Origin: Thermoplasmata archaeon
GTDB lineage: Archaea > Thermoplasmatota > Thermoplasmata > RBG-16-68-12 > JAFNFQ01
Reading direction: 5' to 3'
DNA length: 64,000 nucleotides
Assembly: GCA_041489255.1 (NCBI GenBank)
Contig: JBGPQV010000006.1
Location: forward strand, 32,001-96,000
This document shows positions 1 through 58,232 of this stretch, piece after piece. The stretch's first letter is position 1. Each line of letters begins with the position of its first letter. The notes beneath the pieces were generated by a model. It was given only the letters and a program-made list of their open reading frames with translations. It did no database searches and was not told the origin of the DNA. A program made the position numbers and the translations under genes.

Positions 1-178
1 CCGCGACGTCCCTGAGCGGCACGTAGCCCCGCAGGGCAACGGGCTGTCTCTCGCCCTTCTCCTTCCGCGGGAAGTAGACCTTCGTGTTCCGTGTCTGGCG
101 TGCTGCTTCCCGGATTCCCCTCGAGGCGTCCCGCAACGCCGTCACGAGCACTTGCCATCCGTCCGGTCTCTTGACCAT
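1..178 (-). CDS. Hypothetical protein, 5' part (MVKRPDGWQVLVTALRDAS...), runs off window
   Basis: ATG at 176-178 directly downstream of motif copy 185-197; frame open to window edge. Confidence 0.6.
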   Translation of the reverse strand, partial: MVKRPDGWQVLVTALRDASRGIREAARQTRNTKVYFPRKEKGERQPVALRGYVPLRDVA

Positions 179-203
179 TTCACTACCACCCGAAAAAGCT
201 GGC

Positions 204-662
204 CTACAGGCCAGTGGAGACCTGCACGAGCACCGCGTTGTACACCTGCAGCATCGTGTCGACGGACGAGAGCACGTCCTGCATCTTCTGCCGTTCCTCC
301 TTGAACCGCTCCATGTCCGCGCGGAAGGAAGTGAACTTCTCCGGGCTCATCTGGCCGTTGCGCGACAGCTCGACAAGCTGACCGACGTACTCCTGCAGCT
401 CGTTGAACGGTCCCAGCTCGACGACGGTGAACGCCTTCGGTCCCATTGTCCGCATCCGGTGCTCTGCCTCTCTGGTGTGCTTGCACTCTCTGGGCGCGGC
501 CTTGCCGTACTCGTCCTTCTCGCCCTTGTGCTCGTGGTTGAACTGCCACGACCTGCACTCGCAGTACCACCGCGAGCCGTCGTACATCACCTTGTAGAAC
601 TGACCATGCCTGGACTCGCTCTCGATCTTGAAGACCTTGATGGGTTCGACCTTCAATTCCAC
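204..662 (-). CDS. SWIM zinc-finger protein with C-terminal coiled region
   Basis: YKV...WYCECRSWQF...CKH matches the SWIM CxC-xn-CxH pattern. Start is GTG 662 or TTG 656, after a motif copy. Confidence 0.8.
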   Translation of the reverse strand: MELKVEPIKVFKIESESRHGQFYKVMYDGSRWYCECRSWQFNHEHKGEKDEYGKAAPRECKHTREAEHRMRTMGPKAFTVVELGPFNELQEYVGQLVELSRNGQMSPEKFTSFRADMERFKEERQKMQDVLSSVDTMLQVYNAVLVQVSTGL

Positions 663-700
663 ACCCGAAAAAGGAGGCTAATCGGCCCCGGAAAGACGCA

Positions 701-889
701 TCAGGTCTCATGCGTGAGGCCTTGGAGGCGCGCGGGGAACAGCCCGAACTTCACGCCGACCCGCTCATTCTCGTCGAGTGAGGCGAACATCTCCCGCAAC
801 CTCCTGAGTCTTGGTTGGCAAAGAGGACACTCGTCGTATCGTCCATCGTGCCACTCGTTGAACTGCCCTTGATGTCCCACTCTGACCAA
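701..889 (-). CDS. Small hypothetical protein (62 aa; H..H..CPLC putative Zn site)
   Basis: TTG start at 887-889 right after motif copy 892-905; same frame as track ORF 701..934. Confidence 0.65.
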   Translation of the reverse strand: MVRVGHQGQFNEWHDGRYDECPLCQPRLRRLREMFASLDENERVGVKFGLFPARLQGLTHET

Positions 890-911
890 TGCACCACCCG
901 AAAAAGCGGCG

Positions 912-1721
912 CTACTTGCGCCATGGCACGCCACGGACGTGCGGCTGCCTCAGTGCACCCGACGCCTCTGACGCCTTCCCCTCGACCGGCAGGTAGCGGA
1001 TGACCAGTCGCTGGATCGACCCCTTTGCTATCCCGTCCATGATCGACCTGTTGTTGACCACGACCTCCTGGTCGTAGCCCTTGTGGTTGATGTGGACCAC
1101 GAAGCCGCCCTTCTCGGTGATCTCGTGTCTGACGATGTCGAACTCCTCCTCGATCCACGCCTTCAGCTTCATCCACGCGTTGTTCCTCGTCGGCTTGTAG
1201 GGCATGTCGAGGTCCTTCACGATGATGCCCTCGGCGAGTTGCTGCCGCATGAATTCGAGATACAGGTCCACCTTGTCCTGAGGGCAGCCCCAGTAGCCGG
1301 ACACGTGTATGTGGCCGTTGAAGGCGGGCGACCCCTGGAGGTTCGCCAGCGCCTGCCGCCTTACAGTCAGCGGCTCTCCTGAGATGTCCTGTCCGTTGAG
1401 TTCCAGGAGGTCGAACGCCACCAGCGTCGCCGGCAGCGTCATCGACCTCAACCTGATCTCCTTCGGGTTGTCCACGTTCCTTTTCTGCAGCATGTGGAAC
1501 TGGCTGAGCCCGTTCTGCATGATGACTATCTCGCCGACCAGGACGAGCGCAGGGTCCACCTGCACCTCGGGGAACTGGTACGTCACGTCCCTGAGCCTCC
1601 TGTTGAAGAGTCGGCCGTTCTCGACGAGCACCATCATGCCGTCGTACTTCGGTTCCGCAATGGCGTTCTTCGGATGCCTCTTCGCGTCGTATTCTTGGCA
1701 CAGCTGAAATCCGTATTTCAC
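912..1721 (-). CDS. Minimal ATP-dependent DNA ligase (269 aa)
   Basis: Nucleotidyltransferase motifs I EPKYDG, III LVGEIV, IIIa VAFDLL, IV EGIIVK and V WMKLK, with a reduced OB-like tail. GTG start at 1721 follows the motif. Confidence 0.9.
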   Translation of the reverse strand: MKYGFQLCQEYDAKRHPKNAIAEPKYDGMMVLVENGRLFNRRLRDVTYQFPEVQVDPALVLVGEIVIMQNGLSQFHMLQKRNVDNPKEIRLRSMTLPATLVAFDLLELNGQDISGEPLTVRRQALANLQGSPAFNGHIHVSGYWGCPQDKVDLYLEFMRQQLAEGIIVKDLDMPYKPTRNNAWMKLKAWIEEEFDIVRHEITEKGGFVVHINHKGYDQEVVVNNRSIMDGIAKGSIQRLVIRYLPVEGKASEASGALRQPHVRGVPWRK

Positions 1722-1724
1722 TAC

Positions 1725-1828
1725 ACCACCCGAAAGGTGGTCGTCCCCCGAGGTCTTCGGAAGATCCGGTGCGCATCGGGGGGGAGTCATACCCCTCTAT
1801 GTAGAGAGCTCGCGGGGACCTCACCACC
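1725..1828 (-). promoter_or_regulatory. Structured RNA leader between two motif copies upstream of the ligase gene
   Basis: Outer stem GTCCCC(G)CGAG/CTCGGGGGAC with two inner hairpins. An ACCACC segment (1736-1741) is complementary to GGTGGT of both flanking motif copies. Confidence 0.5.
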
Positions 1829-1849
1829 CGAAAAAGAGCGTGGAGAGCC

Positions 1850-2593
1850 TCACTGGGTTTCCACTGTCCCCATTGGGATCAATATCGGCTGTCCTATCCC
1901 CGGCAGCATCGTCGACTCTGCGAGCTTCCTCTGGACCAAGTCGAAGAGCGGGTCGGGCTCGCTCGGGAGGACGACGTCGTCGGACTTGATGGACTCCATC
2001 AGGACCTTGGCCTGCGTCTTCACCTTCGGGTCCGCGGCCGCCATCGGCACGTCGTAGGGCAGCGGCTTGAGGTCCGCGACCTCGTAGGCGAGGAGGCACC
2101 CCTGCTCGTCCGCGACGACGACGTAGTGCCGCACCCTGTCCCTCGGCGAGAAGCGGGCCATGATCGCCATGCCCGTCTCCTTCAGCGTCTCGTGGACCGC
2201 CCTGAACGTCGCCCTCGACGTCTCGTTGCTCTTCTCCGGCGGGAGTAGCCTGTACGTCGCGCTCATGCCGTATTTCGACCCGACCCTCGAGAAGTCGACC
2301 GACTTCTCGACCTTGAACGAGTCGACCTTCGGCCTCTCCGCCTTCGCCTGCTCGAGTTCCTCCGGCGAGATGACGATGTACTCGCCGCTCCCGGGTTTGG
2401 GATAGCCCCGCTGCGGGACCTTCACCCACGAGGAGTACGTTTCTCCGCCCTCCTCGCACTTGACGGTCATCTTCGGTGGCTTTCCGTGACACAGGGTCTT
2501 CAGTTCGAACTGGTCGTCCTGCGTCGCAGAGAACACGCTCACGGGGACCTGGACAAAGCCGAAGTCCAATGCCGTATCCTTCATTCTGGACAC
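1850..2593 (-). CDS. ku: Prokaryotic-type Ku DNA end-binding protein
   Basis: N-terminal LDFGFVQVPVSVFSAT matches the Ku/YkoV consensus ISFGLVxIPVxLYSAT. Also RGY...GEYIVISPEEL, YRLLP and AIMARF elements. Adjacent to a ligase. Confidence 0.85.
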   Translation of the reverse strand: MSRMKDTALDFGFVQVPVSVFSATQDDQFELKTLCHGKPPKMTVKCEEGGETYSSWVKVPQRGYPKPGSGEYIVISPEELEQAKAERPKVDSFKVEKSVDFSRVGSKYGMSATYRLLPPEKSNETSRATFRAVHETLKETGMAIMARFSPRDRVRHYVVVADEQGCLLAYEVADLKPLPYDVPMAAADPKVKTQAKVLMESIKSDDVVLPSEPDPLFDLVQRKLAESTMLPGIGQPILIPMGTVETQ

Positions 2594-2617
2594 TCACCAT
2601 CACCCGAAAAAGGCGCT

Positions 2618-2992
2618 TTAAGCTGGCGGAGCCAGCCACTCGCGCACCCTGGTTATAGCGGATTCGAGGTCGCAGCGCACTGCCTCGTCTCCCTGGCGGT
2701 TCTCGAGGTAGTAGCCGCCGTCGACCATCCGTATGATGACGCCCGGCCTGTTGACCTCCCGCCATATCCACTCGTTCCTGATCTTGGCCACCTGCGACGC
2801 GACGTTCTTCGCCAGCGACTCCACGTCTTGGGGCGGAGCCTGCGTGACCATCGGCGGCGCCTCTTGCGGCGGCGTTGCCTGCGGCGCCCCAAACACCGCG
2901 TAGCACCCCTTGCAGACCTTCATCCCGCCCTCGGTCTCGACCAGGTCCTTTCCGCACTTGGGACACTCGTTGTCCGGTATCTTGGGAATCAT
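2618..2992 (-). CDS. Zinc-ribbon protein (CPKC-x-CKGC) with Pro/Gln linker
   Basis: Two CxxC pairs; ATG after motif copy 2995-3008. Confidence 0.75.
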   Translation of the reverse strand: MIPKIPDNECPKCGKDLVETEGGMKVCKGCYAVFGAPQATPPQEAPPMVTQAPPQDVESLAKNVASQVAKIRNEWIWREVNRPGVIIRMVDGGYYLENRQGDEAVRCDLESAITRVREWLAPPA

Positions 2993-3011
2993 TGCACCAC
3001 CCGAAAAAGGG

Positions 3012-3317
3012 TCACTTCCTGACCCGGCGATCGTCTATTACCTCGCTTACAGGATGGTCACCCATATACTGAACCTCGAGGAGATAGGCGACCTGAGGTA
3101 ACCTTTTCGGGTGGTGAGAATGAAAGAAGTCTACTGCCATTACGCTGGGGAGTGGATTCCGATGGGGCGGAGCCGAACACGATGCCCAAAATGCGGTGCG
3201 GTTGTCCACAACGCTCCTCTCGAGTAGCGAAGTGAGGAATTCGTCCCGTTCTGTCTGAGACATATCCTTCATCGCGTTCCGAATGTCGACCAAGACTGTC
3301 TCTACGGCCCTGTGCAT
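3012..3317 (-). CDS. Chimeric ORF created by an internal inversion (N-part of gene A, antisense middle, C-part of gene B)
   Basis: Starts after motif copy 3322-3335. The middle section 3075-3224 carries a motif copy and an ORF on the opposite strand. Confidence 0.5.
   Translation of the reverse strand: MHRAVETVLVDIRNAMKDMSQTERDEFLTSLLERSVVDNRTAFWASCSAPPHRNPLPSVMAVDFFHSHHPKRLPQVAYLLEVQYMGDHPVSEVIDDRRVRK
3120..3227 (+). CDS. 35-aa Zn-ribbon peptide MKEVYCHYAGEWIPMGRSRTRCPKCGAVVHNAPLE (truncated by inversion)
   Basis: ATG 3120 follows the only + strand motif copy (3104-3116); C..CPKC pattern; TAG 3225-3227. Confidence 0.65.
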   Translation: MKEVYCHYAGEWIPMGRSRTRCPKCGAVVHNAPLE

Positions 3318-3341
3318 TTCACACCACCCGAAAAAGTGAGG

Positions 3342-4832
3342 CTACACCGCCTCGAATATCTTCCCAGCGACGTCGTCGCCCTGCGTGAGCAGGTCGTACA
3401 GATGGTGGACCACGTCCGAGACCTTCTCGAGGCTCACGGCAGTCCCTCCTATGATGACGGAGTGCAGGCGGAACTGTTTCTTCTCCTTGACAGCCTTGAA
3501 CTCCTTCTCGAACTCCTCGGAGAAGTCGCACTCGCCGTCCGTGACCATTATGACGTCCGCCTTCTTGAACTCCTGCTTGTCGATGTCTCTGACGGCCTCA
3601 GACAGCGGCCGCTCGAAGTCCGTCCCGCTGTTGAAGAACGTCTCGGCCACGTCCATCAGGCGCTTCAGCCTCTCGCCCGGGGACATGTTGGGCTCCACGA
3701 CGACCTTCTCGAGCTCGGACCTCGAGCCGAAGTTGATCCACTCGATCGTCCTGCGGTCCCTCAGAGCAATCTCGGCCAGCGACAGGCCCACGGCTTTCGC
3801 CCACATCTCCCTCGTGATGCCTCCGCTGTCCATCCCCATCGAGCCGCTGTTGTCGACGCAGACTATGATGGGGCCGCGGCCGAACATCTCGCGGCCCTCC
3901 AGCTCGTACTGCAGCAGCTCCGACTTGACGTACTTCGCGTAGAAGTACGGCCGGCGCGCCGGAATCGCGAGGTTCGTCAGCTCCGACGATATGACCCTCG
4001 AGATGTTCCGGCCCATCGTTATGTCGGCTATCTCGGACGGCTCCTTGGTCACCCTGGTGTACCGCTTCTGGAACGCGAGGCGCTTGAAGCGGCCCAGTAT
4101 CTTCGCCAGCTCCCGTATCTTCTGGGAGTTCTGTATGTGGCGCATCAGCTGGAGCCGGTCCTTTCCTGGCAGTTTGGTGACCTGGCCGGGCTCCATGCCC
4201 CAGCCGCCGGCGAAGTCGTTGACCATCTCGATGTCGGAGAGCGCCGTGTTGATGGCGCCCCTGAACGCCGCCTTGACTGCGGGGTTCTGGCACGCCTGGT
4301 TGAACGCCTGTTGCGCCTGCTGAACCGCGTTCTGCAGCGCGGGCATCTTCTTGCTGAGTCGCGCTTGCAGCTTCTTGAGCTGCGGCGTCAGCTGGCTGAG
4401 TCCCGACAGGGCTTTCAACTGAGCGGCAGCCTTCTGCAGGTCGACCTGCCGTTTGGCGTACTCGTTGACCGCGTTCCTGTCCTCCTCGGGGAGGTTTTCC
4501 ATGAGTTCCCGCGAGATGACCTCGGTTGCGATCGCCGATGCTTCCCTCTCTCCGCGCGTGACCGTCCTGAGGCGCTGGTACTCCTGGGTTCCCATCGCCT
4601 TCTCGATCAGGTTCCTGTTGAACTCGTAGATGGGATCCACTTCCTCGGACGGACGCAGCATCGGGGCGTATTTCCACACGCTGTCGAAGACGTCCTGGCC
4701 GAGTTCGTGCGCCGTCGCGAGCGTCTTCCTGTTCAGCGTCTCCTGGAGGCGCTCCGATTCGTCGAACATAGACCTCCATGCCGCGACGTCGAACGGGTCG
4801 CACATCACTGTGTACTTGAATAGTTCGTCCAT
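3342..4832 (-). CDS. VWA-domain protein (ViaA-like MoxR partner)
   Basis: GPIIVCVDNSGSM (MIDAS DxSxS), SGTDF, DVIMVTDG; adjacent to a MoxR ATPase. Confidence 0.9.
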   Translation of the reverse strand: MDELFKYTVMCDPFDVAAWRSMFDESERLQETLNRKTLATAHELGQDVFDSVWKYAPMLRPSEEVDPIYEFNRNLIEKAMGTQEYQRLRTVTRGEREASAIATEVISRELMENLPEEDRNAVNEYAKRQVDLQKAAAQLKALSGLSQLTPQLKKLQARLSKKMPALQNAVQQAQQAFNQACQNPAVKAAFRGAINTALSDIEMVNDFAGGWGMEPGQVTKLPGKDRLQLMRHIQNSQKIRELAKILGRFKRLAFQKRYTRVTKEPSEIADITMGRNISRVISSELTNLAIPARRPYFYAKYVKSELLQYELEGREMFGRGPIIVCVDNSGSMGMDSGGITREMWAKAVGLSLAEIALRDRRTIEWINFGSRSELEKVVVEPNMSPGERLKRLMDVAETFFNSGTDFERPLSEAVRDIDKQEFKKADVIMVTDGECDFSEEFEKEFKAVKEKKQFRLHSVIIGGTAVSLEKVSDVVHHLYDLLTQGDDVAGKIFEAV

Positions 4833-4854
4833 TCACCACACCCGAAAAACGGGC

Positions 4855-6036
4855 CTACAGGCCCAGCAGCTCCTTCTTCAAACCCAGCTCGTCCTTGACG
4901 ATGCGTTCCTGCATCCCACGTCCAACGGCTATGTAGTGCTGGACAACGGACATGTCCATCGCCGCCTTCTCGCCCTGGGCGTATATGTCCAGCAGGGTCT
5001 TCAGCGCGTCGTTGATCTTGGACAGGGTGAACGTCGCCTCCGACGCCCTGTTCCTCTTCCCGTCTGGCGTGTCCGTCGGCAGCTTCTCGAGGTTCGCCAT
5101 CGCTATCTGTATCGCGTCGTGCTGCTCCTCCGCCTTCTTGAGCAGCGGGTTCGCGACGCTGAGAACCGCGCCCTGGACGAGCGCCTTGTGCTGCGGGTCT
5201 ATCCACAGCATGTGGCACAGGACGCCAAGGTCATCGACCAGCGCCTCGGTCCTGCCCTGGAGCCACGCCTTCGCCTTGACGACCTCCGTGGCCTCGTTGT
5301 AGCGCCTGTCCGAACCCTGGATGCCCTGACCGGTCAGCATCCTGCGTATCTGCGTCATGCCTTCCAGGACCGCGTCCGGCATGTTCACGAGGGAAGCCTC
5401 GACCTGCGCGGCGTGTATCTCGTCCAGCGTCAGCCGGACGGTCAGCCTCTTCGCGAAGTCGTCGAGCTTCTTCGGTCCCTTGAGCATCGCCATGAAGTGG
5501 CTGTCCTCCGACAGGTATCCTACCTTGTACCTCATCAGGAACCTGTCGTAGAACGCCTGGTCGTTCTCGTCGCTCGAGATCTCGTTCGATGCGGCCATCA
5601 GGACCTCGAGAGGGCACTTCTGCGGCGCCCCGTCGTTGTCGAACATCCGCTCGTTCATGATCTTGAGCATGGCGTCCCGTATGCTCTTGTTTCCCTTGAA
5701 TATCTCGTCCGCGAGGCCGATGTGGCACTCCGGCAGCCTGCCCTTGGTCACGCGCCTCCAGGAATCCTCCTGCAGCGCCTTGACCGACGGCGGTCCGAAC
5801 ACGTGGTCCGGCTCCGTGTACTTCGAGAACTGATGCTCCCAGTACACGGCCTGGTCGATCTGGTTCGCAACGAGGCGCATCATCAGGCTCTTGCTGGTTC
5901 CCGCGGGGCCCACGATGAACACGTGTTTCCTCGCCAGGAGGGCCAGCATCAGCCCGTTGACCTCCTCGGTGCGCTCCAGGATTATGCCGTTCATCTCGGT
6001 CTTGAGCTGGATGAACTTATCCCGTAGAGCGGTCAT
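4855..6036 (-). CDS. MoxR/RavA-like AAA+ ATPase
   Basis: Walker A GPAGTSKS, VFGP, GRLP, Walker B ADEIFK, MNER, AASNE, YDRF, SDRR. ATG 6036 follows the motif. Confidence 0.92.
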   Translation of the reverse strand: MTALRDKFIQLKTEMNGIILERTEEVNGLMLALLARKHVFIVGPAGTSKSLMMRLVANQIDQAVYWEHQFSKYTEPDHVFGPPSVKALQEDSWRRVTKGRLPECHIGLADEIFKGNKSIRDAMLKIMNERMFDNDGAPQKCPLEVLMAASNEISSDENDQAFYDRFLMRYKVGYLSEDSHFMAMLKGPKKLDDFAKRLTVRLTLDEIHAAQVEASLVNMPDAVLEGMTQIRRMLTGQGIQGSDRRYNEATEVVKAKAWLQGRTEALVDDLGVLCHMLWIDPQHKALVQGAVLSVANPLLKKAEEQHDAIQIAMANLEKLPTDTPDGKRNRASEATFTLSKINDALKTLLDIYAQGEKAAMDMSVVQHYIAVGRGMQERIVKDELGLKKELLGL

Positions 6037-6057
6037 TTTCACCTACCCGAAAAAGAC

Positions 6058-6222
6058 TCAGTCGGAGAGTTCCGCGTTGACCCCGAACACGTCGACAGGA
6101 TTCCCTCCCGCCACGTGCTCTTGCAACGTGTTTTCGAACAGCTCTGTCGCTTTCTCTATCGCGTCGTTGGAGTCTTCGGCCTCTACCTCATAATCTATTG
6201 CAAAGACGACCTTGAACTTCGT
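6058..6222 (-). CDS. 54-aa acidic phage-type protein (xKFKVVFAIDYEVEAEDSNDAIEKA...), apparent ACG start
   Basis: Fills the gap between motif copy 6228-6241 and copy 6044-6054. The VEAEDxxxA pattern is common in small phage proteins. The codon at the expected start position is ACG. Confidence 0.65.
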   Translation of the reverse strand, partial: TKFKVVFAIDYEVEAEDSNDAIEKATELFENTLQEHVAGGNPVDVFGVNAELSD

Positions 6223-6260
6223 GTCCTCACCACCCGAAAAAGAATCCCCCTCTGGGGGAT

Positions 6261-7229
6261 CTAGTCTTTCTTCTTGACCAGGGGCGCCATCAGCGTCACG
6301 TAGGTGTGCAGGGCGTCCATCTGTATCTGCACCTTGCCCATCGTGACCGACAGCAGCTGCTCGTACTCGGTCTTCTGCTCGGCGAGGTACTTCAGCTCCT
6401 CGACGAACCTGTTGAAGACGCTGGGGACTACCTCCTCCTTCCTGTCGATGATCTCCTTGACCTGGCCGAAGACCTCGTCCAGCCTCTCGAGGGTCGCCTT
6501 CTCGTACCTCTTGAGGAGGGTCGCCCTCTCGCTCTCCCGGTCGATCACCGGCAGGGCCAGCATCTCGCTCCCCGGCAGCTTCTCCACGACGCGGGACACG
6601 GCCTCGATTGGCCCCATGTTCGGTCTCGGGACGAAGAATATCCCGCCGGACTCCCTCAGCGGCATCCTGAAGGACCTGTACAGCGCGTCGCTGATCATCC
6701 CTCTGATGTCGTCCGCTGCGAAGGACTTGCTGTAGACGTCGAACCAGTGCCTTATGTACGGCTCTATGCCGTTGTCACGCGGCTCGAACGCCTGCCTCTG
6801 CTTGAACTCGACCGAGTTCCGGGCCTTGTCGAACCTCGCGGCCGCGACGACCGGCATGGCGTCCTTCGCCGAGTCCAGGACTCTCCTCACGATGACCATC
6901 GTGTCCGAGATCTTCTGCGTCCGCTTGGTCACGGGGTCCTCGACGTATTCGTAGTCGACGTGGTACTCGCGCCCCTTCATGGAGACGTGGTTCTCCGACT
7001 GGACATCCCTTACGGCTCGCTTGAACGCGCTCGACGGCCTTGTGCGCTTCGGCCAGAACTCCTGGGGAACGCCCTCGGCCGCGAGCATCTGCTCCAGCTG
7101 CTCGTGGGGGATGACCTGGTCGGATACGGAGTACCACACGACTGAACCCAGTGGCTCGCTCACGGAGACCTGCGCGACGGCAACCTTCGCCATCTGGTCT
7201 CTTCCGATCGGTATCTCTACCTCTCGCAT
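6261..7229 (-). CDS. Hypothetical protein resembling the DUF6744 family seen beside MoxR/VWA genes in mobile elements
   Basis: GSVVWYSV, P...AFKRA, LRESGGIFFVP and a helical C-terminus. Family call is from memory of these motifs. Confidence 0.7.
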   Translation of the reverse strand: MREVEIPIGRDQMAKVAVAQVSVSEPLGSVVWYSVSDQVIPHEQLEQMLAAEGVPQEFWPKRTRPSSAFKRAVRDVQSENHVSMKGREYHVDYEYVEDPVTKRTQKISDTMVIVRRVLDSAKDAMPVVAAARFDKARNSVEFKQRQAFEPRDNGIEPYIRHWFDVYSKSFAADDIRGMISDALYRSFRMPLRESGGIFFVPRPNMGPIEAVSRVVEKLPGSEMLALPVIDRESERATLLKRYEKATLERLDEVFGQVKEIIDRKEEVVPSVFNRFVEELKYLAEQKTEYEQLLSVTMGKVQIQMDALHTYVTLMAPLVKKKD

Positions 7230-7249
7230 TTACACCACCCGAAAAAGAC

Positions 7250-7492
7250 CTACCGCAGCAGAACGGACAGGTTCTTGTGTTCCTTCAGTCGGTTTCGTGT
7301 CCTCTGAATGAAGGTCTCGGGACATTCTCTCAGGAGGCGTACAAGGATGTCACGCGTTCCCATGTGGTAGGCATTCACTTCCGCTATCGTGACCGCCGTT
7401 ACCCGCGTCTTCTTTGCGAAGTCGTCGAGACCGACCATCTCGACAGCGCTCTTGAGCCATCGTTCGACAAGTTTGTCGAAGTTATCTCTCAC
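7250..7492 (-). CDS. Small hypothetical protein (80 aa)
   Basis: GTG 7492 after motif copy 7496-7508; ends just before the next copy. Confidence 0.7.
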   Translation of the reverse strand: MRDNFDKLVERWLKSAVEMVGLDDFAKKTRVTAVTIAEVNAYHMGTRDILVRLLRECPETFIQRTRNRLKEHKNLSVLLR

Positions 7493-7514
7493 TTTACCAC
7501 CCGAAAAAGCACGG

Positions 7515-8039
7515 TCATCCGACCGTGGTCGCGACGAGCCACCACTCGTCCGGCTTGGCTTCAATCTCCTTGATGCGGTCCTCGTCCACGCCACAGTGAT
7601 AGTTCTCAGGGTCATACAGGATGCCACAGGACGTCCAGTGTTGGGCGAGTATGTCGCCCGCGTTCCGAAGACAGTAGCCGACCATCCCCAGTTTGCGGCC
7701 CCTCTCGCCGCTTGCGGCCTCTTCAGGGACCAGTTCCTTGGTGCCGAACACCCCCGCCTCGTTCGCGTACCTCCTTGCCCCCTCGGTCCATTCCTGCACC
7801 GCTTCGATGCGGTGCTGCTCGAGCTCTCGGAGTCGAGCGACGAACTTCGCGGGGTCTTCCTTTGCACTCAGGACCTCTGCGTCGGAGTCGTCCTGCCACC
7901 CCAGCGCATCGACGTAGCCCTTGTCCCCCTCCACGAGGTCATGATTCTCGAAGAGGACTCCTATCTCGCCGTCCGCGGCCTTGATCGCCTCGTCACGGGT
8001 CGTCCCTTGGACCAGCATCATCATCGCGTATCCACTCAT
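7515..8039 (-). CDS. Hypothetical phage-type protein (174 aa; C-terminal PDEWWLV)
   Basis: ATG 8039 after motif copy 8042-8054; same frame as track ORF 7515..8324. Confidence 0.75.
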   Translation of the reverse strand: MSGYAMMMLVQGTTRDEAIKAADGEIGVLFENHDLVEGDKGYVDALGWQDDSDAEVLSAKEDPAKFVARLRELEQHRIEAVQEWTEGARRYANEAGVFGTKELVPEEAASGERGRKLGMVGYCLRNAGDILAQHWTSCGILYDPENYHCGVDEDRIKEIEAKPDEWWLVATTVG

Positions 8040-8061
8040 TACACCACCCGAAAAGGCCCCG

Positions 8062-8355
8062 TTACGGGGCAACCGACGACTTGCACTCCATACACTTGAA
8101 CCCATTGGGGACCACGCCGACCTCGGGCAGGACGACGTCGAACTCCTCGGCGTCGTGCTCCTCGTCCGGGCCGTCGAATCCGAACCATCGCATCCACGTG
8201 TGGCAATCCCCACAGTGATACAGCGACTGGTTGTGGTCAAGCACCTGGACCGGAGACATCTCCTTTCCGCAGCGCGGGCATTGATGCCCCTGGTCGCGCC
8301 ACCTCTCCCAATCCATGGGAACAAGCACGGGGACTATGTATTTCGATTCCGGCAT
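8062..8355 (-). CDS. Small Cys-rich Zn-binding protein (CPRC, CGDC, CMEC)
   Basis: Three CxxC pairs; ATG after motif copy 8358-8371. Confidence 0.75.
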   Translation of the reverse strand: MPESKYIVPVLVPMDWERWRDQGHQCPRCGKEMSPVQVLDHNQSLYHCGDCHTWMRWFGFDGPDEEHDAEEFDVVLPEVGVVPNGFKCMECKSSVAP

Positions 8356-8376
8356 TACACCACCCGAAAAAGGGAC

Positions 8377-8673
8377 TCAGGGAGCACCTTTCGCCTCTTC
8401 GGCCAGATCGACCTTGAGAACCCTGGCGCTGTTCACCTGCATCATCAGGCCGTAGTCATCGCACGTGACGTCGCCTGTTACCTCGACCGGCTGGGCCACG
8501 AGCATGTCCGCGAGCTGGTCCCTGATGACTTCCTGGTTGTCCTTCGACTCCGCCACGCAGGCGTCCAGCGTCTTCTTGAGAAGTCCCTCGGTCAGCTGCC
8601 TGTTGAAGATGGCGACCATCGCTCCGCTGCCGTCATCGACGACTGCTTTGACGCGAAGATCCGGCTCTGCATT
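8377..8673 (-). pseudogene. rpa: Fragment of archaeal replication protein A (C-terminal OB fold)
   Basis: EPDLRVKAVVDDGSGAMVAIFNRQLTE...VTGDVTCDDYGLMM resembles the euryarchaeal RPA C-terminal region. The N-terminal OB folds and Zn finger are absent. Confidence 0.75.
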
Positions 8674-8800
8674 CGATCCTATTGAGGCTGGACCTTTCTC
8701 ACGCCAACTCAATCGGCGGAGGTGACCCTCGGCGGATCGACTAGCATTGATTCGAGCTGTAGGGTCTATCTTTAAGTGGTGCGCGGAATTTCCATAGAAC

Positions 8801-9310
8801 GTGGAGAAGTACGTCTTTCGCAAATACGACGCCCGATATAGGACATTCTTTGAGATGGAAAAGGCAAAGCTCGCGGACATCCTCCGGGCGGCGATCATCG
8901 AACATGTCGGAAGCACTGCTGTTCCTGGATTGGGAGGAAAGGGAATCCTCGACATTGCGCTCGCCGTTCCCAAGAAAGGGCTGCAATCCGCCGAGAGAGC
9001 GCTGCGGGAGGCAGGTTACGAATTCCGGGCAAAGGCGAGCACTCCAGAACGATTGTTCTTCAGGAGAGACTATGCAGAGGGACGGAAAGTCAGACGGGTC
9101 CACCTCCACCTTATGCGCCTCGGCAGTCGGGACTTGAAGGAGCAAATCGCCTTCCGCGACTTCCTTATGGACCATCCGGACAGTGCACGCCGGTACGCGG
9201 AGGTCAAAAAGGAGGCGGCGAAAATGTCGAAGGGAGACGGTGATTTTTACAATGCCTACAAGAAACGCTTCATCGAAGATGCAATTGAACTGGCTCTTGC
9301 GGAGCGATGA
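8801..9310 (+). CDS. GrpB/UPF0157 nucleotidyltransferase-fold protein
   Basis: IEHVGSTAVPGLGGKGILDI, VHLHL, FRDFL, Y..VK, Y...K..FI. Confidence 0.9.
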   Translation: MEKYVFRKYDARYRTFFEMEKAKLADILRAAIIEHVGSTAVPGLGGKGILDIALAVPKKGLQSAERALREAGYEFRAKASTPERLFFRRDYAEGRKVRRVHLHLMRLGSRDLKEQIAFRDFLMDHPDSARRYAEVKKEAAKMSKGDGDFYNAYKKRFIEDAIELALAER

Positions 9311-9437
9311 CTCTACGATTCAGTTCGAAGGAGGGCTGCACCTGTCGATGGTCGCTGTACCGACTGCGTCGTGCGCTCCCATGTCTGAGCAAGCCATCAT
9401 GTCAGTCGTCTTGGCGGCGATATGGGGCGACAGGTTA

Positions 9438-10577
9438 ATGTCGGCCACATCTAATCTGGGCTCCCGAGGCGATTCTTTGGGCCGCTACCATGTTAGGTGG
9501 ATAATTGATCCGGCGGTGCGAATCGAAGACGATTTTTCCATCGGATTCGAGGACGATGGCCGCACGATATTGACACATGTGACAGATACAACCGCAGCTC
9601 TGTCCGAAAGGGCCACCGTGTCCCCCGTCATCTCGGTAGACATGCAGCTTGACGCGAATACCCTTTCTGAGGCACTTCACGCAACGTATCGACCGGCGAG
9701 TTCCGTGGCTGGTATCCTATCCGTCATGTCGTGCACAGGTTTGCCCCCAATTGCACTCGCCTCCGCATTTGACTTCTCGGAGAACAAAACGGAACACGAC
9801 TTCATTCAGGTCGTTCAACTGCCCAGGACACGGGGAAGTGTCAGAACAGTATCGATGCGAACGTTTGAACAACTCAACAAAAGACTTGGCGCGCTCGATG
9901 AGAAGCAGCAGGGATGCGTATGGCGAGCCTTCAGGTGGGCGTCTCATGCAAACGAGGAGCGCAATTACCTATTCCGGTTCCTCGCTAACTGGTTTGTCCT
10001 TGAGTCCTTGGAAGAAATGCTCGCGTGTCGCATGGGTGTCTCTGGCAAGACGAAGGACAAGAACACTCCGAAAACGCCCGGAGTCGAAGCATTTATTCAA
10101 TCACAGCAAGGTCTCCCAGTAGGGTTCTATGATGTCATCAGAAGAATCCGCAACAAGATAGTCCACGGTTCCGGGAAGCTGGGTTTACTGGGGGACGACG
10201 TCAAACGTATCAATCCCTCGTTCTCCGCGGTCGCGTACCGGGCAATCGCCTTCGTTGCGAGTTGGGTTGTCCCAGCTGAAATGCCTGCCCCCACCGAGTG
10301 GTCATCGTTCCCGAAGAGGCTCTCCCTTCGCACGCGCGTCTACTCCAAAGAGCCAGGATACTTCGGACGAGGGCAGGAGTTGCCGCACTTCAATCCGAAC
10401 CGAATAATCCGCGCGGCCGCCCAGATACGCGGTGAAGGCATGATCGTCCTCCCGAGTGCCTCGGCATTCGAGCCGTTGATGGCTGAAGGTGTCACATTTG
10501 GCCCCGCAGCCTTAACAGTCCACAGCGCCGAGGTGGACTTCGCGGATGTCGATGTCACTTTCCATGGCGCAGGTTGA
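9438..10577 (+). CDS. HEPN-domain protein (ApeA/MauJ-like), putative RNase
   Basis: AFRW....RFLANWFVLESL helix and RNKIVH (Rx4H) motif. Start uncertain (9348 or 9438). Confidence 0.7.
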   Translation: MSATSNLGSRGDSLGRYHVRWIIDPAVRIEDDFSIGFEDDGRTILTHVTDTTAALSERATVSPVISVDMQLDANTLSEALHATYRPASSVAGILSVMSCTGLPPIALASAFDFSENKTEHDFIQVVQLPRTRGSVRTVSMRTFEQLNKRLGALDEKQQGCVWRAFRWASHANEERNYLFRFLANWFVLESLEEMLACRMGVSGKTKDKNTPKTPGVEAFIQSQQGLPVGFYDVIRRIRNKIVHGSGKLGLLGDDVKRINPSFSAVAYRAIAFVASWVVPAEMPAPTEWSSFPKRLSLRTRVYSKEPGYFGRGQELPHFNPNRIIRAAAQIRGEGMIVLPSASAFEPLMAEGVTFGPAALTVHSAEVDFADVDVTFHGAG

Positions 10578-10761
10578 GGGCACCAACGAGAAATTGATCG
10601 TGGTGCCCGGTGCAGTGCAGCGACATTCGCTGAGACGTCCGCTGGAACAGCGTAGGGTATGTCCGTGGGGAAACCCTGCTCGTCATGGCACAGAAGGTCA
10701 TCAACGTCTCCTCATCACCATCTAGTGCTGGGTTCCCATGGTCTTCGCGGGCACTCGCATG

Positions 10762-11019
10762 TCAAAGGTTCATGCCTCTCGCCTTCGACAGGAATATCCA
10801 TCCAAATCCAGCTATCAGCACTATCAGTGTGAGCAAGGGCATTGCGATGAGATACCCAGGCAGATGGCCAGTAGAGGCCAAGATTCCGCTTCCTATGACC
10901 AGGAGAAGGAGAACTCGAAGGCCGTACTTGAAGGTCCCGAACCACTCTCCTCCGAGGCTCATCTTCGTGGCTCTCGACGCGCTGGTCGACATGCTAGTCA
11001 TTGTCCTTGACACCACCAT
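10762..11019 (-). CDS. Small two-TM membrane protein
   Basis: Two hydrophobic stretches in track ORF. Confidence 0.45.
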   Translation of the reverse strand: MVVSRTMTSMSTSASRATKMSLGGEWFGTFKYGLRVLLLLVIGSGILASTGHLPGYLIAMPLLTLIVLIAGFGWIFLSKARGMNL

Positions 11020-11686
11020 TGTGTCCCTTAGACGCGGTTCTCCTCCTCGTGACGCACTTGGTCCGTCCAGTCAGCTGTCTGACCTGATTCTCGGGTCGAG
11101 CCGACCCTCCACCATGATGCTTGTCAGCATCGCTCCTCGCCAGCGCCCTTCTTATTTCCGTCGCCGTGGTTTCACACATTGCAGCTATTGCATCAAGGGC
11201 ATCGAGCGCCTTTTCAGCGACCAGTCTGGCGTCCCGCGGTTCGTCTGTGGGCGTCTCATCTGCTGATGCACTGTCTCCAGGTTCGTTGTCAGTCGAGAAT
11301 CGGGAAGAGATTCGGGCCCGTGTCGCTTCCCCCTCCGCGCGCTCTGAGTCACCCCTCCAGTCACCACCAAAATCGCTCACCAAACCAGATCTGAGTTGAA
11401 ACCTTGCCCTGAGTCTACCGTTCTCGAAGAAGATGTAGGCGTTGCGGAGATTGGACTCGTAGCGAGTTACCGATCCCTCAGCAGATTCCGTTCTGATGCT
11501 CGTCAGGAGGCCGACGTCGAGTAGAGTCTGCGTCCGCCTATAGCACACCGCAACGGGGATCTTGTAGACTCTGGCTATCTCTTGGACCGTCATAGGCCGC
11601 TTGGATGTGGATATCAATATCTTTGCTGAATACTCGTCCGTAACCAGCCTTGATGCCTCCAGAGGTCCCAACGTTGGTCTGTCCAT
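10994..11686 (-). CDS. Archaeal winged-helix (ArsR-like) transcriptional regulator with C-terminal extension
   Basis: LVTDEYSAKILIST..PMTVQEIARVYKIPVAVCYRR...LLDVGLL. The C-terminal half is unassigned. Confidence 0.75.
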   Translation of the reverse strand: MDRPTLGPLEASRLVTDEYSAKILISTSKRPMTVQEIARVYKIPVAVCYRRTQTLLDVGLLTSIRTESAEGSVTRYESNLRNAYIFFENGRLRARFQLRSGLVSDFGGDWRGDSERAEGEATRARISSRFSTDNEPGDSASADETPTDEPRDARLVAEKALDALDAIAAMCETTATEIRRALARSDADKHHGGGSARPENQVRQLTGRTKCVTRRRTASKGHNGGVKDND

Positions 11687-12599
11687 GACTTCAGGCCTTG
11701 CGTATTGATGTGCCTACCCGCTAATAAAGATTGCTGTTATCTCACTAGATAATCGTCAAACATGACATTGCCAGAGATTGGCTGTTTCCATCATTATAAA
11801 TCCGTACAAAGAAGTCGATATCCGCCTTATCTATTCAGATAATAGATAACCAAGAACCCAGTTGCTGTGTTGAACCGATTGATGGCGGGAGCTCGGCATA
11901 GTAGCCCGCCTCTTCAGCAAGGATGGAATGCGTGCCGAGCGAGGGTGAAAGGTACCTCAAGGACAAGAGGAATTCACCCGGGTACAGCGAACGGTTCGTT
12001 CAGCAGGGGGAACTGCACCTCAGCCTCGGCTGGCCGGACTCGCTGGACGATGAATCAGGGGCAACAAACGATGGGAAGACGGGGCCTATATTGCTTCCTC
12101 GAAGGCATGATTCTCTTCCTCGCCACAGTCAGGCGGATCCTAAGGATGCAGTACAAGCAGTTGGAAAGGTCCTCCATGGCTTTTCAAGGATTGTGGGCAA
12201 GGTCAAGCTTTTAGACTATACGACTCTCGGGTGGTGGATGGCAGGCATGGAGCTAGAAGTCTCCATGATATGAGGCAATGCCCATTCGTGAACGCCTTCA
12301 ACTCCTCCGGTACAAAGGTCACTGATAAGGGCGAGTGGACGATGGAGAAACAGCAGCAGGCTAAACGGCGTGGAAATAGCTATCCTCCTCATGTTGCAAG
12401 AACCGCCAACTGCCAGCCTGATAGATAGAACCTAGGCGGTCCTATCTGTCTGGCTTCTTGCATCACATTGATGACAGTTGGCAGACCGACCTATGACACT
12501 CTGAATCGAAGCACTCGATGTTGAGCGATAACTGGCCGGTCACCAAGAGAGGATGCTGGCGATGGAGATGACATTAAGAGAACTGCTTGTTCTCGTCTT

Positions 12600-31950: not shown

Positions 31951-32119
31951 CGGCCATGAGTCCCCCTGCACATTGCTTACCGCGGACGCGCGATCGTGAC
32001 CGGGCGGTCCGTCGAGGACGTCCTGACGGCTCAGCGCAAAATCTCCGCGGTCGAGCTCGGGCTTGCCCGCGGACAACTATGAATCGGTCTTATGCCAAGG
32101 AGTCCTTCAACGCTTCATC

Positions 32120-58115: not shown

Positions 58116-58232
58116 CGCCCAGGGCAGGATTCGAACCTGCGAGGCCTTTCGGCCAGTAGCTTGCTCGGTGCCGCCGGATTCCGGCTCGACACGCTCGAAG
58201 CTACCGCCTTGACCGGGCTAGGCTACCTGGGC
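58116..58232 (-). tRNA. tRNA-Ser(CGA) with 32-nt canonical 37/38 intron (58162-58193)
   Basis: GCCCAGG/CCTGGGC acceptor; GTAGC-TTCGAG|A-GCTAC anticodon arm; long variable arm GGCCGAAAGGCC; GCAGG-TTCGAAT-CCTGC T arm; BHB at the junctions. Confidence 0.93.

Follow-up and report, generated by a model that had tools for sequence, protein, structure and literature searches.

What is the short repeat that stands at nearly every gene junction of one archaeal operon, and what might it do there? The window analyzed here, meaning the whole stretch of 64,000 nt, covers positions 32001 to 96000 of contig C6 (JBGPQV010000006.1) of a Thermoplasmata archaeon genome, G000. At its left end lies an integrated mobile element whose genes, all on the minus strand, appear to form an operon of ~11 kb and ~20 genes with one upstream promoter. 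On that strand the repeat, hereafter the box, reads TTTTTCGGGTGGTG. We put a probability of roughly 55% on the reading that each junction is a composite of a terminator-like stem-loop with a U-tract and a uniform Shine-Dalgarno (SD) box, which is also a point of recombination. Positions below are those of the window unless preceded by a contig name.

The box is a property of the element and not of the genome. Scanning all of G000 at up to one mismatch, we found 17 copies in a 12-kb stretch of the element (C6:29.4–40.4 kb) and none in the remaining 2.73 Mb; at up to two mismatches, the 14-mer occurs 21 times inside the element and 10 times outside. Likewise, 19 of the 21 exact occurrences of TTTTCGGGTG in the genome fall inside C6:29568–40361. 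The 8-nt core TTCGGGTG has 55 occurrences outside the element, dispersed and with no relation to gene starts. Within the window, TTTTCGGGTG at up to one mismatch gives 19 matches (shuffled sequences: mean 3.7, maximum 9), 16 of them in 184–8371, where 15 are minus-strand copies and 3103–3116 is a plus-strand copy. The remaining three (30503, 34987, and 38188) each carry one mismatch. An earlier reading of the window's letters alone (the original prediction) had proposed an element-wide signal absent from host genes, with 16 copies in ~8.2 kb and no intact copy in the other 55 kb, and the scans bear out each of these points. What it had missed is that the array does not stop at the left end of the window but runs 2.6 kb further; the full array comprises 22 copies at up to three mismatches (C6:29429–40371), 20 of which share the orientation of the genes.

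Two copies have unusual surroundings. The box at 3103–3116 is the only inverted one in the window and, in the operon RNA, would be a perfect 14-nt complement of the neighboring boxes. The last box of the array (C6:29565–29578, in the region C6:29429–29578, or L001:17429–17578) has a hairpin and no gene behind it; it faces an inverted plus-strand copy (CCTTTCGGGTGGTG) 122 nt away, with a T5 run between the two, and this arrangement may be an operon end structure or a terminator.

At the junctions, the box occupies the position of a ribosome-binding site. In most copies the start codon follows 2–5 nt downstream, which places GGGTG 5–8 nt ahead of the start, a normal SD spacing. The 16S rRNA of G000 ends in ...GGATCACCTCCT, and the GGGUG(GU) of the box can pair with this tail, in agreement with the earlier suggestion that GGTG pairs with the archaeal anti-SD. 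The predicted duplex has an energy of -8.4 kcal/mol for the core and -11.5 kcal/mol for the G000 form, compared with -10.0 kcal/mol for GGAGG. An SD alone does not explain the conservation of the box, however, because C-T5-C cannot pair with the 16S tail, although T5 is nearly invariant in G000 and the base preceding the T-run is a C in 18 of 20 copies. The claim that TTTTTCG is conserved beyond the needs of an SD is thus supported. The one other 16S match we noted, CACCCGA, occurs once, at position 1350, which we take to lie base-paired within helix 44; a chance match to a 7-mer is expected in about one in ten such RNAs.

Host genes are arranged differently. Among 1664 crude host starts, CGGGTG lies upstream of 0.2%, compared with 9.7% for GGAGG and 10.4% for GGTG, so the motif is not, as a plain SD might be, equally frequent before ordinary host genes. 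Since CGGGTG is rare at host starts and the hairpin-T5 arrangement is not found at host gene ends, both halves of the junction are foreign to host usage.

The upstream half of the junction is a GC stem-loop that lies within 30 nt upstream of the T-run, ends 0–3 nt before it, and usually holds the stop codon of the preceding gene in its loop or 3′ arm. The mean folding energy of the 30 nt ahead of the T-run is -10.2 kcal/mol in G000, versus -5.85 kcal/mol for 1570 same-strand control windows from the element (Mann-Whitney p = 1.3e-8); at the junctions of relatives (n = 45) the mean is -10.1 versus -6.4 kcal/mol for controls (p = 1e-10). Hairpins are therefore commoner at junctions than in controls, a point on which the original prediction could have failed. 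A scan of positions 1–12000 for terminator-like sites returned 21, at least eight of them junction hairpins, against 8.6 ± 2.8 in shuffled sequences. The geometry is that of an intrinsic terminator, a GC stem of 5–8 bp followed by T5 within 0–3 nt, and 19 of the 20 sense-strand T5 runs of the operon are junction T-runs, the other one standing after the last gene. Because the distance from the upstream stop to the next start is 18–25 nt in 14 of 19 junctions, the box makes up almost the entire intergenic spacer.

Nine of these stem-loops, all on the minus strand, can be placed individually in the window. The stop codon sits in the loop at 199–214 (150-aa gene), 907–923 (DNA ligase gene), 3338–3353 (gene of a VWA-domain protein), and 4850–4865 (MoxR gene, TAG); the stem-loops at 3009–3025 and 7510–7527 lie over the stop codons of g9 and g3, and an 8-bp stem-loop at 6243–6261 directly follows the stop codon of the DUF6744 gene. 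These seven, all listed in the original prediction, were recovered both by folding and by the terminator-like scan. An eighth, at 8056–8070, is likewise present, abuts the T-run, carries the TAA of g2 in its loop, and folds at -11.1 kcal/mol, while 674–689, after the 62-aa gene and supported by folding and the scan, is an addition to that list. Stem sequences differ between junctions, except that those at 199–214 and 4850–4865 share GGCCTGTAGGCC as had been noticed before; it is hairpin structure that is conserved, not hairpin sequence. When whole junction segments are folded for minimum free energy, the SD is paired in 16 of 20 cases in G000 and 38 of 45 in relatives; we do not rely on these uncontrolled figures, single-sequence folds of GC-rich 60-mers being noisy.

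The same arrangement recurs in diverged relatives. Clusters of TTTTTCGGGTG occur in only 2 of the 79 genomes of the order, namely G000 (19 matches) and G043 (nine), with at most two matches in the others. Two contigs of G043, another Thermoplasmata metagenome-assembled genome, are collinear with the G000 operon (L013 and L014; 36–61% identity over nine matching protein pairs), and MoxR as query against genome contigs recovered the G043 contig alone. In metagenomes the MoxR scan gave 80 loci, of which the six at 52–57% identity (L017–L022) all carry TTCGGGTG, in 2 to 14 copies each and always oriented with the genes. The box was not found in the other 74 metagenome loci or in 80 viral loci (MoxR at up to 41% identity), and we saw no convincing analogous motif in distant MoxR-bearing contigs. 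A 15-mer scan of viral contigs, covering at least 120 loci, gave single chance-like matches, with no more than three core copies each among the matches listed. In relatives, 8–11 nt of the box are kept: the invariant part is TTCGGGTG, preceded by 2–5 T and followed 3–8 nt later by a start codon. Orthologous junctions retain the box and differ in their flanks and stems, as in the stem after DUF6744, which is AGCCCG-loop-CGGGCT in relatives versus GATCCCCC-AGA-GGGGGATT in G000. In the more distant relatives, one or two small, box-led genes occupy the DUF6744–MoxR junction, and these are for the most part unrelated from one element to the next.

Two stretches in these searches stand apart from the box itself. 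On the minus strand of L014, positions 5100–5700 comprise an AT-rich stretch with TTTATATAT-like boxes and then, ahead of the first box-led gene, ~400 nt that are GC-rich and appear not to code for protein; this ~400-nt stretch matches no Rfam family and could represent a non-coding RNA or a long leader with structure. L050, a metagenome contig with a distant MoxR relative, carries a palindromic repeat with TAGCACGTGC five times, mostly in AT-rich intergenic sequence and in three cases in the flanked form GTAGCACGTGCTAC. This repeat, found in a distant relative of the module, is an intergenic signal unlike the box.

The box also marks the places where gene order and content change. For this comparison we aligned on the window X6 and X7, contigs of two soil runs from two studies that are mostly 80–99% alike to it. 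The first of the differences at the box (REARRANGEMENTS) is the absence from X6/X7 of the 98–99 nt between the boxes at 1724–1737 and 1822–1835, with 12 shared letters at the X6 joint. In addition, the small ORF (open reading frame) between the boxes at 6041–6054 and 6228–6241 is replaced by 180 other letters, g4 is missing, and g2 and g3 stand in reversed order. Across five well-supported joints, 9 of the 10 ends lie within 3 nt of a box, where 3.6% would be expected by chance (binomial p = 1e-12); counting distinct ends only, 7 of 8 do (p = 6e-10). The exception falls 27 nt from a box, within the end of g2 that carries the hairpin. Another four joints, whose short sides of 22–42 letters call for caution, have 3 of 8 ends at a box and were not counted. 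The box is unlikely to have caused chimeric contigs because, at 14 nt, it is shorter than the assembler's 31-letter words, and the same joints occur in both soil studies. The check proposed with the original prediction, a search for switches of gene order and content at motif positions in related elements, came out in favor of a weak form of its recombination option.

These observations of element-specificity, position, SD complementarity, hairpin enrichment, conservation in diverged relatives, and breakpoints at the box underlie the composite junction that we favor. In 5′ to 3′ order, it would consist of a GC stem-loop over the upstream stop codon (ending 0–3 nt before the T-run), C-U5, C-GGGUG(GUG), a spacer of 2–5 nt, and the start codon. 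The 3′ half would act as a uniform, fairly strong SD box from which each cistron could initiate independently on a polycistronic RNA. The stem-loop and U-tract would resemble an intrinsic terminator and insulate cistrons from one another, the likeliest means being attenuation or the formation and stabilization of 3′ ends. Any such activity at the RNA level, be it in translation strength, termination, or processing, is read here from sequence. Because the same box of 11–15 nt recurs at every junction, it could further act as a recombination point for the insertion, deletion, replacement, and reordering of genes. It evidently has this role in recombination, and a selected trait and a by-product would look alike in our data. 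The conservation of C-T5-C may also leave room for a specific factor or for a DNA-level role resembling that of phage stoperators.

Several observations weigh against this reading or limit its support. For four of the 22 copies (6241, 1835, C6:30928, and C6:29578), no canonical start codon stands where one would be expected, and the TTTTTC half, with the C before the T-run, lies outside any pairing with the 16S tail. The crude host start set, which takes the first start of ORFs of at least 200 aa, gives too low a figure for host SD use. A T5 within 45 nt is seen at just 1.8% of 1666 host ORF ends, without hairpins (mean -5.6 kcal/mol), and whether the host terminates at stem-loop/T5 sites is not implied by its gene ends. 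The stems are equally stable on both strands (29 versus 35 of 65 junctions), which does not discriminate between RNA and DNA, and so nothing proves that they act as RNA. The T-run of relatives often has only 2–4 T, which weakens a terminator role. Finally, the search pattern fixes seven of the eight core positions in the relatives' logo, leaving the flanking T's and the spacing as the independent part.

The alternatives differ mainly in which part of the junction they take to be the functional one. It is possible, though clearly less probable than the composite junction and compatible with it, that RNA punctuation is the main function, with the stem-loop and U5 serving as a partial terminator or as a cleavage site for aCPSF1/FttA. 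The products would be nested or monocistronic mRNAs with a protective 3′ hairpin and a 5′ end a few nucleotides before the SD, or else the output of a cascade controlled by antitermination. The terminator geometry, with stems ending 0–3 nt before the T-run, favors such a role, as do the near-invariance of T5 in G000, the placement of 19 of 20 sense T5 runs at junctions with the other after the last gene, and the final box at C6:29565–29578, which has a hairpin even though no gene follows. In archaea, U-tracts are the recognized termination signal, and termination efficacy is reported to correlate with U-tracts bound by aCPSF1 (PMC8716108). Yet T-runs are reduced to 2–4 T at many junctions of relatives while TTCGGGTG persists, ~20 serial terminators would starve the distal replication genes unless read-through were high, and host gene ends lack this architecture. 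A more elaborate and tentative version, which we consider doubtful, makes the U5-CGGGUG box and stop-codon stem-loop a cistron punctuation code read by a specific factor, encoded either by the element or by the host (for example aCPSF1, which binds U-tracts). Only with no ribosome on the upstream stop would the hairpin form and terminate or cleave the RNA, so that transcription of the next gene would be licensed by translation of the previous one; the box would serve as a private, uniform ribosome-binding site, and the element's Ku and ligase could, as a side effect, use it as microhomology for cassette exchange.

It is unlikely that the box is instead bound as DNA by a regulator, encoded by the element, whose block to elongation at many oriented sites keeps the integrated element silent, in the manner of a stoperator and with a coincidental or secondary SD core. 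A box of 14–16 nt that is asymmetric, fixed in orientation to transcription, placed in short intergenic spaces, and conserved beyond what an SD needs would suit such a site, and the element is integrated, with an integrase gene at C6:19567–20736. Stoperators themselves are described as many repressor-binding sites that terminate elongation (PMC9283540). The fixed spacing of 5–8 nt between GGGTG and the start and the pairing with 16S rRNA, however, suit a ribosome-binding site and are needless for a DNA site; moreover, the element's proteins gave no match to a DNA-binding or repressor-like domain at Pfam thresholds, and only 8–11 nt are kept in relatives. Somewhat less likely still is translational coupling, in which the terminating ribosome is passed to the next SD and start. 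A short, uniform gap of 18–25 nt between stop and start and a stop codon inside the hairpin would suit such coupling, but gaps of ~20 nt are reported to come close to abolishing termination-reinitiation in Haloferax volcanii and Escherichia coli (PMC10666635), and the element avoids the overlapping ATGA/TGATG arrangement, the sole exception being a mini-ORF chain before g19. The original prediction's termination-reinitiation is thus disfavored at these gaps. We give the least weight of all to dedicated site-specific recombination that moves single-gene cassettes, as at the attC sites of integrons. Gene-sized indels, one replacement, and one reordering do end at boxes, the genes are co-oriented and promoterless, and one cassette-like unit is inverted (3103–3227). 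Against this, the box lies outside the stems, the stems have no common core sequence, the only tyrosine recombinase is encoded on the opposite strand, ~9 kb past the distal array end and separated from it by unrelated genes, and the conservation of backbone order at 36–61% protein identity fits rare homology or microhomology events better than active cassettes.

The attC-like proposal of the original prediction consequently survives in part. Its weak form, in which gene content and order switch at the motifs as at the promoter-early stem-loops (PeSLs) of T4-like phages, holds; the features of attC proper are absent, and we rejected an attC site because the stems lack a conserved core and the box lies 3′ of the stem. 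An integron was rejected as well, the only integrase gene being ~9 kb past the distal end of the array and not next to it. Nor did the search for a recombinase to the left of the window, which had been suggested, yield anything beyond the tyrosine integrase gene (Phage_integrase family), the only integrase gene found.

Among known systems, the composite junction is functionally closest to the start-associated sequences (SAS) of cluster K mycobacteriophages, of which we regard the box as an analogue and not a homologous member. PMC3203893 describes SAS as a 13-bp asymmetric repeat with 11–19 copies in one orientation, 3–7 bp before starts, confined to the non-structural half of the genome and essentially absent from the host genome. 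It further reports an SD core together with highly conserved positions that are unable to pair with 16S rRNA, and inverted repeats before about half of the copies. Most of these traits have a counterpart here: a short, asymmetric, oriented repeat a few nucleotides before starts, an SD core joined to unpairable C-TTTTT-C, no host copy at up to one mismatch, inverted repeats upstream, and restriction to non-structural genes. The sequences are unrelated (GGGATAGGAGCCC versus TTTTTCGGGTGGTG), the cluster K consensus not being matched by the box, and the hosts are actinobacterial in one case and archaeal in the other. The extended SAS (ESAS) repeats of cluster K are sequence-conserved and, in that source, judged unlikely to be RNA hairpins, whereas here the repeats vary, fold well, and abut the T-run; and here nearly every gene of the operon has a box. 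The function of SAS is still described as unproven (PMC12699233).

The PeSL cassettes of T4-like phages, named with SAS in the original prediction as the closest precedents, a choice with which we agree, resemble the junctions in another respect. As described in PMC4122927, they combine a stem-loop with an expression signal between small variable genes and mark the ends of indels and replacements, as boxes do at 9 of 10 joint ends. PeSLs carry a promoter, whereas the expression signal here is a ribosome-binding site and the shared box only 11–15 nt. An A/T-rich window (at least seven A/T in 8 nt) is found ahead of just two G000 junctions (of 20) and one junction of relatives (of 44), and because no TATA-like window precedes the junctions, the genes are not separate promoter cassettes. 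We accordingly rejected a promoter at each junction; a sigma-70 scan is irrelevant for an archaeon. The distance between an archaeal TATA box and the transcription start site requires more room than the gap between box and start codon provides, and a junction promoter therefore fails on position too. Promoter-like elements also distinguish two haloarchaeal viruses. In the myovirus HGTV-1, a conserved motif that includes an inverted repeat stands before many ORFs of one genome arm (PMC3950731), and halovirus HF2 has intergenic repeats conserved in position and with promoter activity (PMC8707807). Both sets contain TATA-like or AT-rich promoter elements, while the box stands 2–5 nt before the start and has an SD core and no promoter-like part.

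Intrinsic terminators share with the junctions the GC stem of 5–8 bp followed by T5 within 0–3 nt; here, however, the unit is found inside an operon, at every junction, fused to the SD of the next gene, and host genes end otherwise. Stoperators are oriented with transcription and, to our knowledge, have neither a fixed start-codon spacing nor an SD core. Those of cluster A mycobacteriophages have in common with the box that many short asymmetric sites are spread across a temperate element, but they are repressor-binding DNA sites (PMC9283540), and no repressor was found here at Pfam thresholds. In the literature searched, we found no description of an archaeal signal analogous to SAS at the ribosome-binding site.

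The operon runs from small proteins (two of them zinc-ribbon-like) through DUF6744, MoxR ATPase, VWA, Ku, and ATP-dependent DNA ligase proteins to further small proteins and an MCM/AAA-like ATPase; genes and boxes are on the minus strand unless stated. Its first ORF (8377–8973) has no box and no Pfam match, and its start is uncertain, with an in-frame ATG at 8619. Ahead of it, the sole promoter-like sequence that we saw by eye, CTTAAAGATA at 8767–8776 (minus), is a candidate TATA-like box of the single operon promoter. The box at 8358–8371 (TTTTTCGGGTGGTG) then precedes g2 (8062–8355; 97 aa, zinc-ribbon-like below Pfam cut-offs), that at 8042–8055 (CTTTTCGGGTGGTG) precedes g3 (7515–8039; 174 aa, no family), and that at 7495–7508 precedes g4 (7250–7492; 80 aa, no family). 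Next come the box at 7233–7246 with the DUF6744 gene (6261–7229; 322 aa, E = 5.9e-39, distant homologs in haloarchaeal tailed viruses) and the box at 6228–6241, which has no canonical start behind it and is followed by the degenerate small ORF at 6058–6198, itself without a canonical start and the one replaced in X6. A degenerate box, TTTTTCGGGTAGGT at 6041–6054, leads the gene of a MoxR-type AAA+ ATPase (4855–6036; 393 aa), and 4836–4849 leads that of the VWA-domain protein (3342–4832; 496 aa).

Behind the box at 3322–3335 lies g9 (3012–3317), a 101-aa ORF of doubtful coding status and atypical composition, with a third-codon-position GC content (GC3) of 0.62 compared with 0.8–0.9 elsewhere. 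The inverted box within it (3103–3116, plus) is followed by a zinc-ribbon-like ORF of 35 aa (3120–3227, plus). Across 3012–3335, GC3 is ~0.6 in either reading, and X6/X7 depth is lower there. The box at 2995–3008 precedes the gene of a 124-aa zinc-ribbon protein (2618–2992), and that at 2598–2611 (TTTTTCGGGTGATG) the gene of a Ku-like DNA-end-binding protein (1850–2593). Behind 1822–1835 stand the 98 gene-free nucleotides that X6/X7 relatives lack, then the box at 1724–1737 (CCTTTCGGGTGGTG) and the ATP-dependent DNA ligase gene (912–1721). The last window boxes, at 892–905, 659–672 (TTTTTCGGGTGTGG), and 184–197, lead a 62-aa gene (701–889), a 150-aa gene with a weak SWIM-like match below cut-off (204–656), and a 71-aa gene (1–178) that crosses the window's left end and continues to C6:31963. 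Five further motif-led genes follow to the left of the window, including that of the MCM/AAA-like ATPase (C6:29585–30631).

Two places in this outer part depart from the usual pattern, both on the minus strand. At C6:30942–31723 (L001:18942–19723), a motif-led 51-aa ORF (C6:31568–31723) overlaps a 253-aa ORF (C6:30942–31703) by 136 nt in another frame; with GC3 values of 0.80–0.81, the two could be one frameshifted gene, the shift being real, programmed, or an assembly error. At C6:30886–30928 (L001:18886–18928), we saw by eye a mini-ORF chain behind a box, in which ATG-TAT-TGA is followed by a TGATG that opens a six-codon ORF and an ATGA that opens a 78-aa gene. This overlapping stop-start arrangement is typical of termination-reinitiation and unlike all other junctions here.

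The region is an early or replication-type operon of an integrated mobile element, which may be a provirus remnant. Many viral contigs, as well as the haloarchaeal tailed viruses HVTV-1 and HCTV-1, encode relatives of MoxR, VWA, and DUF6744 at 25–41% identity, so the module has viral kin; we recognized no virion gene in the element, and for these two reasons we call it an integrated mobile element, possibly a provirus remnant. Beyond the distal end of the operon lie unrelated box-less ORFs and the genes of an Eco29kI-like nuclease and the tyrosine integrase (L001:7567–8736 for the latter). The integrase gene and that of the Eco29kI-like restriction endonuclease (L001:11164–11844) are situated between host-like genes and the array and may be a separate island or the remainder of the same element. 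A 924-aa protein and its neighbors, encoded between integrase and array, have no Pfam or PHROG match and only weak Atlas leads below 0.8. At the right end, contigs of near-identical strains (X2 record 6) bridge into host DNA, and we place the border roughly at ~8664 to ~8873, where the coverage of X6/X7 relatives stops. A search of the borders found no att repeat and, in C6:12001–32000, no tRNA; G001, a genome of the same genus, has diverged too far in DNA sequence to serve in this comparison.

Other searches of the sequence gave little. At gathering thresholds, the one Rfam match in the window is a tRNA, and L001 and L014 have none. That tRNA (58116–58232, minus; 117 nt, 47.3 bits), unseen by ARAGORN in bacterial mode, is probably an intron-containing archaeal tRNA. 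A crude CRISPR repeat search of the genome found no CRISPR array and no spacer matches; it picked up a 72-nt tandem repeat in three copies at G000:C22:30625–30840, which is not a CRISPR array.

In one group of mycobacteriophages, start-associated repeats have been on record since 2011, and their function is still unproven; promoter-bearing repeats are known from T4-like phages and two haloarchaeal viruses. The archaeal box described here is fused to a terminator-like hairpin, is conserved in elements of uncultured Thermoplasmata at ~55% protein identity, and coincides with natural rearrangement breakpoints. It offers a simple sequence tag by which members of this clade of elements can be found in metagenomes, and a second, independent system in which to ask why mobile elements standardize their gene junctions and whether such standardization makes early regions modular.

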